A DNA stretch of 64,000 bases from Escherichia phage vB_Eco-B1.1. Positions 20,216 to 20,833 of this stretch are shown here, in pieces. The stretch lies in sequence record ON871820, one strand, 5' to 3'. Every line of letters starts with the position of its first letter. Position 1 is the first letter of the stretch. The notes under the pieces are model-generated. The model saw only the letters and a list, made by a program, of their open reading frames with translations. It had not been told where the DNA came from and did not search any database. Made by a program: the position numbers and the translations under genes.

Positions 20216-20833
20216 TTATGCCTTACTAAATTTGCCTTTAGAATCTCTTTTCATGAGACGACCTTTAATAAATCCGTCGGGAATAATACCGTCTGGTTGT
20301 ATTAATTTATTTATTACGCCATTATTGACCCAAAAAGTTCCTGTGGTAGTCGGTTTGACTTTACATCCTTTTCTGGACTTTCTATTAGGATGAACCATCC
20401 CTTTTACAAATCCTTCTGGAACAAGTTCTCCAGGTTTAATAAAAATATTTTTAGTTCCATTAGTGTAACAAGTTGTACCTAATACCGTGCCCGGTGAGTT
20501 TTCAAATCTCTTAGCGGAAGATTCTTTCATCTTTGCTATAACCTCTGTAGTCATAACAATTCCACCAATTCCACCAGGTTTCATATTATAATAATTTTTG
20601 CTTTTTATTATTTCAGGAGTTATAATTTCTTCTTCATACATGTACGCTTCTTCGGAAGTTTTAAACTCTTTTAGTATTGTTCTAGAGAAATTGTTTTCAC
20701 CATATTTCTTTATAGCCTGCTGAATTGCCTTATCGGAACCAAGGTAACCATCATTCAAGTCATCAGTAGAGTGCTTTCCTATATACTTTTTACCATTTAT
20801 TAGATTTGTTGTTTCATATACAAAGTGGTACAT
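20216..20833 (-). CDS. segE: GIY-YIG homing endonuclease (SegE-like)
   Basis: GKKYIGKHS ... YLGS GIY-YIG motif; located between uvsW and inh where T4 carries segE; 205 aa. Confidence 0.6.
   Translation of the reverse strand: MYHFVYETTNLINGKKYIGKHSTDDLNDGYLGSDKAIQQAIKKYGENNFSRTILKEFKTSEEAYMYEEEIITPEIIKSKNYYNMKPGGIGGIVMTTEVIAKMKESSAKRFENSPGTVLGTTCYTNGTKNIFIKPGELVPEGFVKGMVHPNRKSRKGCKVKPTTTGTFWVNNGVINKLIQPDGIIPDGFIKGRLMKRDSKGKFSKA

Follow-up and report, generated by a model that had tools for sequence, protein, structure and literature searches.

The 64,000-nucleotide stretch of Escherichia phage vB_Eco-B1.1 DNA analyzed here (record ON871820; hereafter the window) carries between uvsW and inh what is, by its sequence, the segE gene of Tequatrovirus, a free-standing GIY-YIG homing gene whose product is most likely still functional. 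BLAST shows the window to be collinear with phage T4 (NC_000866) in reverse orientation, from about 131180 down to 67578, at 90–98% identity with a handful of indels. Over window positions 16000–36000 the top records of the phage collection (ES12, ES26, FL33, VEc20 and others) are at most 97.4% identical to it, and on this comparison we assign the window to Tequatrovirus and find it identical over that range to no record of the collection. The gene and its two neighbors are located as follows.

20216–20833, minus strand: segE, an ORF of 205 aa, free-standing GIY-YIG homing endonuclease gene (ORF list, T4 SegE identity, PF19835, PHROG 314)
18705–20213, minus strand: uvsW, encoding a helicase; SegE target and host gene (ORFs, T4 map, PMC2988022)
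20883–21563, plus strand: inh

The segE ORF runs intact from ATG to TAA, with no frameshift and no internal stop codon. Its product is identical at 200 of 205 residues to T4 SegE (NP_049795; Kadyrov, Shlyapnikov, Kryukov, FEBS Lett 1997), a protein of the same length encoded at the same position behind the same upstream late promoter, and the two genes differ at 7 of 618 nucleotides. The product scores 37 bits against the Pfam family PF19835 (SegE_GIY-YIG), above the gathering threshold of 25, and matches PHROG 314, “homing endonuclease”, with E=5.5e-43; against the general GIY-YIG model, PF01541, it scores 20.4 bits, under the 22.6 cutoff. Because of the T4 SegE identity and the PF19835 and PHROG 314 matches, we regard the ORF as a real gene rather than a chance ORF and, to judge from the alignment, as the orthologue of T4 SegE; both the gene and its mechanism are already known. 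The initial annotation, which had noticed a 205-aa GIY-YIG ORF between uvsW and inh at the T4 segE position and had proposed alignment with T4 SegE as a check, is thus borne out both by that alignment and by the T4 gene order.

That another Seg paralogue had landed at the inh/uvsW site is ruled out by the 98% identity to SegE, compared with 28–39% identity to T4 SegB, SegC and SegD. These three proteins share with SegE the N-terminal signature YxxTNxxNGKxYIGxH...DGYxGSG...KKYG...E...YN..GG and are, like SegE, free-standing and encoded beside their targets; they are unlike SegE in their insertion sites, targets and C-terminal regions, and none of them is present in the window. The five substitutions that separate the window protein from T4 SegE are G34D, L75I, D97E, K120T and A173V. 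Of the substituted residues, I75, E97, T120 and V173 are each shared with one or more of the SegE proteins of IsaacDaniel, RB14 and T6, whereas D34 is shared with none.

The SegE product divides into two parts.

20558–20833, minus strand: N-terminal GIY-YIG catalytic domain, approximately aa 1–92 (family conservation, AF2 model, structural matches, profile alignment)
20219–20557, minus strand: C-terminal half, aa 93–205, presumed DNA-binding region (sequence, AF2 model)

At the N-terminus, the GIY-type F4-V5-Y6 and the YIG-type Y17-I18-G19 lie 10–11 residues apart, with YIGKHS spanning aa 17–22 and YLGS aa 30–33. The product keeps Y6, N10, Y17, G19, H21, D28, Y30, G32, S33, K43, G45, E67, N83, G87 and G88, all of which are near-invariant in 120 homologues (Y6 in 118, Y17 in 119, E67 in 119 and N83 in all 120). 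In an AlphaFold (AF2) model built from an 80-sequence alignment, pLDDT is above 93 across aa 1–80, with strands at 2–10, 16–23 and 49–57 and helices at 35–44, 60–70 and 73–77. The three top PDB matches of the model are all to the catalytic domain of I-TevI (1MK0/1LN0), at a probability of 0.99–1.00 and a target-normalized TM of 0.61–0.65, and the N-terminal domain is accordingly modeled as a GIY-YIG alpha/beta fold.

I-TevI, encoded in the T4 td intron, is the best structural match, and its Tyr-Tyr-Glu-Asn core aligns with that of the window SegE. The family profile aligns weakly but in register to I-TevI residues 5–91, placing E67 and N83 of SegE opposite I-TevI E75 and N90. In the same alignment the I-TevI segment SAKDFEKRW, which holds R27, faces a nine-residue gap in the SegE family; the first arginine of the window product is R51, and R27 has no obvious counterpart. 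The gap is common to all of the Seg-type subfamily, active T4 SegE included, and is no defect particular to the window copy. Besides lacking the R27 stretch, SegE differs from I-TevI in that the latter is intron-encoded and only about 25% identical. The two proteins share a two-part layout, with the catalytic domain first and a DNA-binding region, presumed in SegE, after it, and by analogy with I-TevI the C-terminal half of SegE probably binds DNA. This half contains two copies of the motif (Y/W)xxNGxxNxxIxPxxxxPxGFxKG, at aa 123–145 and 168–191, and is modeled at lower pLDDT with a helix at 96–112 and beta-hairpins at 121–132 and 167–178; Pfam finds no NUMOD3 or zinc-finger match in the product.

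The gene order, the same as in T4, is uvsW.1, uvsW (minus), 2 nt, segE (minus), a 49-bp spacer, inh (plus) and hoc. The 2 nt between the segE stop codon and the uvsW ATG are also as in T4, the two genes having the same orientation, and the window and T4 are identical over the flanking stretches compared, which cover roughly 97 nt before the segE ATG and the first 93 nt or so of uvsW. Two short elements define the upstream edge of the insertion.

20862–20869, minus strand: T4 late-promoter consensus TATAAATA (pattern search, junction comparison with T4 and T2)
20834–20845, minus strand: 12-nt segE-specific leader TCGGAAAATAGT (T2 junction comparison, BLAST breakpoints)

The late-promoter consensus lies 28 nt upstream of the segE ATG, within the flank common to segE-less phages, and in such phages, T2 among them, it directly precedes uvsW. 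The window and T2 are identical up to TATAAATATAGATATATTTATTAC (ending in TTATTAC), beyond which T2 reaches the uvsW ATG after 13 nt, and the window and T4 have instead TCGGAAAATAGT, segE, TAATT and the uvsW ATG. Relative to T2, the upstream edge of the insertion therefore falls between 20845 and 20846, and the insertion, about 635 bp long, separates the shared late promoter from the start codon of uvsW. Since the flanks are identical through TATAAATATAGATATATTTATTAC, the promoter that serves uvsW in T2 would serve both segE and uvsW here. PMC2988022 attributes segE transcription to a promoter in the non-coding DNA upstream, and its table 1 gives inh/uvsW as the insertion site and uvsW as the target gene. 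A scan of 18300–21100 for sigma-70 promoters and terminators, which has no bearing on T4 late promoters, returned fewer promoter-like sites than shuffled sequence.

Two further features of this neighborhood were observed. The segE/inh spacer contains on the plus strand, facing inh, a 7/8 match to the late-promoter consensus, AATAAATA, at 20848–20855, and together with the perfect minus-strand TATAAATA it makes 20846–20882 look like a pair of divergent late promoters. The uvsW region here, like that of RB14 and T2, is split into two genes, uvsW (502 aa) and uvsW.1 (18449–18691, minus strand, approximately 76–80 aa); NC_000866 annotates a single uvsW CDS of 1764 nt, and sequence discrepancies are flagged there.

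The start of uvsW differs from the segE-less form.

20034–20213, minus strand: segE-linked recoded uvsW allele, first 180 nt (T2 identity, codon comparison, record counts)

Identity to T2 is 72–87% over these 180 nt, compared with about 98% over the rest of uvsW and 93–100% over inh. Twenty-seven of the 61 codons from 2 to 62 differ from T2, 22 of them synonymously, compared with 21 of the next 440. In the phage collection the T4-type 180-nt allele is found at 95% identity or more in 157 records, in the 60–90% band in 231 and in the 90–95% band in none. Because identity is bimodal and the 157 allele records compare with 158 segE records, segE and approximately the first 180 nt of uvsW behave as one cassette, of about 800 bp, across about 600 sequenced relatives. 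Were the SegE site located there and the flank co-converted during homing, a cassette of this kind would be the expected result, and these 180 nt would be the region of the SegE target, of self-protection and of the co-conversion tract.

Full-length segE at 95% nucleotide identity or more is present in 158 phage records, including T4, T6, RB14, Shfl2, ECML-134 and slur07; these are records rather than independent isolates, RefSeq and GenBank duplicates both being present. A clean T2-type empty inh/uvsW junction is found in 447 records. Against about 600 T4-like records, segD occurs in 55, segC in 38 and segB in 183 (126 full-length), which points to empty segB, segC and segD slots as the norm and to T4 as an endonuclease-rich exception. 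In keeping with a free-standing homing endonuclease gene, segE is an ORF of its own, carried by no intron or intein; it is present in some relatives and absent from others, and in T2 its site is cleanly empty. Occupancy differs even from one close relative to the next: ES12 and RB14 have the window's seg occupancy, FL33 has segE and segD, and VEc20 has segE, no segD and, between genes 18 and 19, an additional ORF. The window and IsaacDaniel, a phage outside the best 30 matches over 20 kb, have segE genes that are 99.7% identical. The view that occupancy of these slots is a useful lineage marker is weak, since most records have the slots empty and even the nearest relatives are not alike in this respect; such patchiness fits mobile elements.

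The other seg slots of T4 have the following equivalents in the window.

25604–25686, no strand: empty segD slot at the gene 23/gene 24 junction (T4, T2 and RB14 comparison)
51390–51400, no strand: empty segC slot, where 5.1 abuts 5.4 (BLAST breakpoints at T4 80217/80775, ORFs, T4 annotation)
59260–59625, plus strand: the actual segB slot, within the tRNA cluster, comprising tRNA-Tyr, tRNA-Asn, a 114-bp spacer and tRNA-His (ARAGORN, ORFs, T4 map)
59357–59431, plus strand: tRNA-Asn gene (75/75 identical to T2)

T4 segD is a 672-bp antisense gene between genes 23 and 24. In the window this junction is 83 bp long, 60 bp standing in for 790 bp of T4; it is identical to the empty junction of T2 and one base, in a T run, off that of RB14. 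It holds a GGGACCTTCGGGTCCC terminator hairpin, a TATAAATA late promoter and the gene 24 ribosome-binding site, and no ORF except a 46-codon stretch overlapping gene 24. The slot reads as an intact empty site, and a segD remnant is ruled out by the identity with the T2 empty site. The segC slot, absent from the earlier list of slots, is likewise unoccupied: T4 has segC and 5.3 between 5.1 and 5.4, both are missing here, and 5.1 (51396–51953) directly adjoins 5.4 (51102–51395).

The initial annotation had described two T4 endonuclease sites as empty here, that of segD at the 23/24 junction and that of segB between the ipI-locus gene and the tRNAs. The T4 map and the T2 junction uphold the former. 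As to the latter, the ORF list and Pfam agree that the interval from the ipI-locus gene to the tRNAs is free of endonuclease ORFs, and segB is indeed absent, but the interval is not the place of segB in T4; T4 segB lies within the tRNA cluster, between tRNA-Arg and tRNA-Ile, as given in the T4 annotation and in table 1 of PMC2988022. At this true slot, the ORF list and ARAGORN likewise show no endonuclease gene in the window. ARAGORN gives the cluster order as Gln, Leu, Gly, Pro, Ser, Thr, Met(CAT), Tyr, Asn, the 114-bp spacer, His and Arg, and BLAST finds no similarity to T4 across 59204–60070. Identity to T2 is 75/75 for tRNA-Met, 86/87 for tRNA-Tyr, 75/75 for tRNA-Asn and 75/76 for tRNA-Arg, and the 116-aa ORF that follows the cluster (59720–60070, plus strand; unknown-function PHROG) is identical to a T2 ORF at 112 of 116 residues. 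According to PMC2330249, the T2L tRNA-Asn gene contains the preferred SegB cleavage site, and since the window tRNA-Asn gene is identical to that of T2, this phage should be a recipient for segB homing. The cluster as a whole (58687–59701, plus strand) has 11 genes compared with 8 in T4, the non-tRNA spacer occupying 59432–59545.

Comparison of slot occupancy with other phages gives an empty inh/uvsW site in T2 and segE in T4, T6 and RB14. T6 has additional insertions in the same stretch, at uvsW/uvsW.1, at 13/14, at 18/19 and after gene 5, one with an HNH_4 match, one with a NUMOD3 match and two without Pfam match; all four sites are empty in the window. We also scanned with Pfam every ORF in the window stretches without a T4 counterpart (752–970, 2179–2394, 57726–58046, 59720–60070, 60448–60909, 61022–61384 and 61453–61629) and found no endonuclease domain, while PHROGs named three of these segments, as unknown-function or internal head protein. 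On these scans, segE is the sole homing endonuclease gene of the 64 kb.

Other departures from T4 were noted along the window. The ipI locus (57726–58046, plus strand) encodes a 106-aa protein assigned to PHROG 2667, “internal head protein”, and because it has no nucleotide similarity to T4 ipI it would be a different internal-protein allele at this variable locus. Two ORFs of 153 aa (60448–60909, plus strand) and 116 aa (59720–60070) are absent from T4, belong to the unknown-function PHROGs 2280 and 3355, have no Pfam match and flank an rnaC/rnaD-like region at 60070–60414. At 5642–7738 and 7742–9799, on the plus strand, lie two full-length tandem paralogues of the ADP-ribosyltransferase Alt, of 698 and 685 aa; T4, in contrast, has one alt and the remnants alt.-1 and alt.-2, annotated as an old partial duplication, and this region accounts for a window segment of 3.3 kb where T4 has 1.6 kb, a difference of about 1.7 kb. 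Finally, about 670 bp of gene 12, the short tail fiber gene, at 40155–40829 has no detectable nucleotide similarity to T4, T2 or T6, with flanks at 91–95%, and looks like a swapped receptor-binding segment.

T4 SegE is active, and when T4 is crossed with RB30 its homing is almost 100% efficient and requires both an intact segE gene and DNA homology (PMC2330249). From its position, segE would be co-transcribed with uvsW from the shared late promoter upstream. Following the T4 literature, in a mixed infection SegE would cut the DNA of a segE-less relative at the inh/uvsW junction or in the 5′ end of uvsW, the cleavage site being placed here to one or the other. T4-type DNA, according to the same literature, would be cut less well. 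Repair of the double-strand break off the segE-carrying genome would copy segE and flanking markers into the cut genome, with almost 100% inheritance of segE and local exclusion of the other phage's markers as the outcome. The suggestion that this endonuclease may drive marker exclusion thus has a documented precedent in T4 x RB30 (Kadyrov 1997, summarized in PMC2330249). Since all family-invariant residues but G34 are kept, the window SegE most likely works likewise, with an activity that G34D could weaken.

The reading of segE as a working homing gene has to be weighed above all against the state of a single codon.

20732–20734, minus strand: codon 34, GAT, giving G34D in the DGYxGSG family motif (SegE/paralogue comparison)

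The Seg-type (PF19835) signature DGYxGSG is incomplete in the window protein, which reads DGYLGSD. Position 34 is glycine in the SegE proteins of T4, T6, RB14 and IsaacDaniel and, at the equivalent position, in T4 SegB, SegC and SegD; among 119 aligned family representatives it is glycine in 114, serine in three, asparagine in one, valine in one and aspartate in none. The allele is, in the sequences searched, private: the 61-mer around codon 34 has no exact match in 152 matching phage records, 142 of which show one mismatch, and the exact protein has no match in a collection of 15 billion proteins. (Neither the D34 nor the G34 29-mer was found as an exact pattern in IMG/VR, which is thus uninformative on this codon.) This is the sole point about the window segE that appears not to have been on record before. 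The initial annotation held that loss of the GIY-YIG catalytic residues would indicate a pseudogene; those residues are all present, and the changed motif glycine, which directly follows the quoted YLGS, was overlooked. It is therefore conceivable, if unlikely, that the gene is segE by descent and yet an inactive or crippled allele, G34D damaging catalysis or folding, in early decay once no empty sites remain and kept only through its position between promoter and uvsW. Reversion to glycine raises the family HMM score by 4.7 bits, the top effect among the five differences from T4, and the profile alignment puts residue 34 two positions past the residue that faces I-TevI H40. In I-TevI, H40 lies on the catalytic surface, as Van Roey reportedly described in 2002. 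Against decay stands an ORF that is otherwise intact, as well as the tolerance of serine, asparagine or valine at this position in 5 of 119 relatives; the AF2 model places residue 34 at the N-terminal end of helix 35–44, where aspartate would often be tolerated, and the single-base change could be a sequencing or assembly error. The incomplete motif bears on SegE activity and not on descent, and because a private G34D lies in a near-invariant motif we rate activity of the window SegE as probable rather than certain. That the protein is naturally inactivated or altered in specificity, as a first step of homing-endonuclease decay, we consider doubtful.

Far less probable still is that segE is kept for a role that serves the phage, such as tuning uvsW expression, its endonuclease activity being irrelevant. 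Such a role would draw on the close coupling of the two genes: stop and start are spaced by 2 nt and, because the only nearby TATAAATA facing uvsW is upstream of segE, uvsW late transcripts would have to cross segE, an arrangement of a kind that PMC2988022 describes as favoring retention of the endonuclease gene. However, the segE-less records, T2 included, use the same promoter directly for uvsW; segE is the minority state (158 vs 447), and near-equal relatives over 20 kb differ in endonuclease-gene content, a patchiness that suits a mobile element better than a host function. The dependence of T4 SegE homing on an intact segE (PMC2330249) also speaks against it. A segE that is still a functional homing gene is thus the reading that we prefer.

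Past annotation the finding matters little, since segE is a textbook case of a free-standing homing endonuclease gene and the window copy is 98% identical to the characterized one. What is useful is the correct location of the segB slot inside the tRNA cluster and the co-distribution of segE with the uvsW 5′ end as a cassette. The G34D allele would also offer an inexpensive way to probe what the GSG motif does in Seg-type GIY-YIG enzymes and, if SegE were inactivated by it, the phage would have a protected uvsW allele without a working endonuclease. In co-infections, this phage would be a segE donor, a likely segB recipient and an empty-site candidate for segC and segD.
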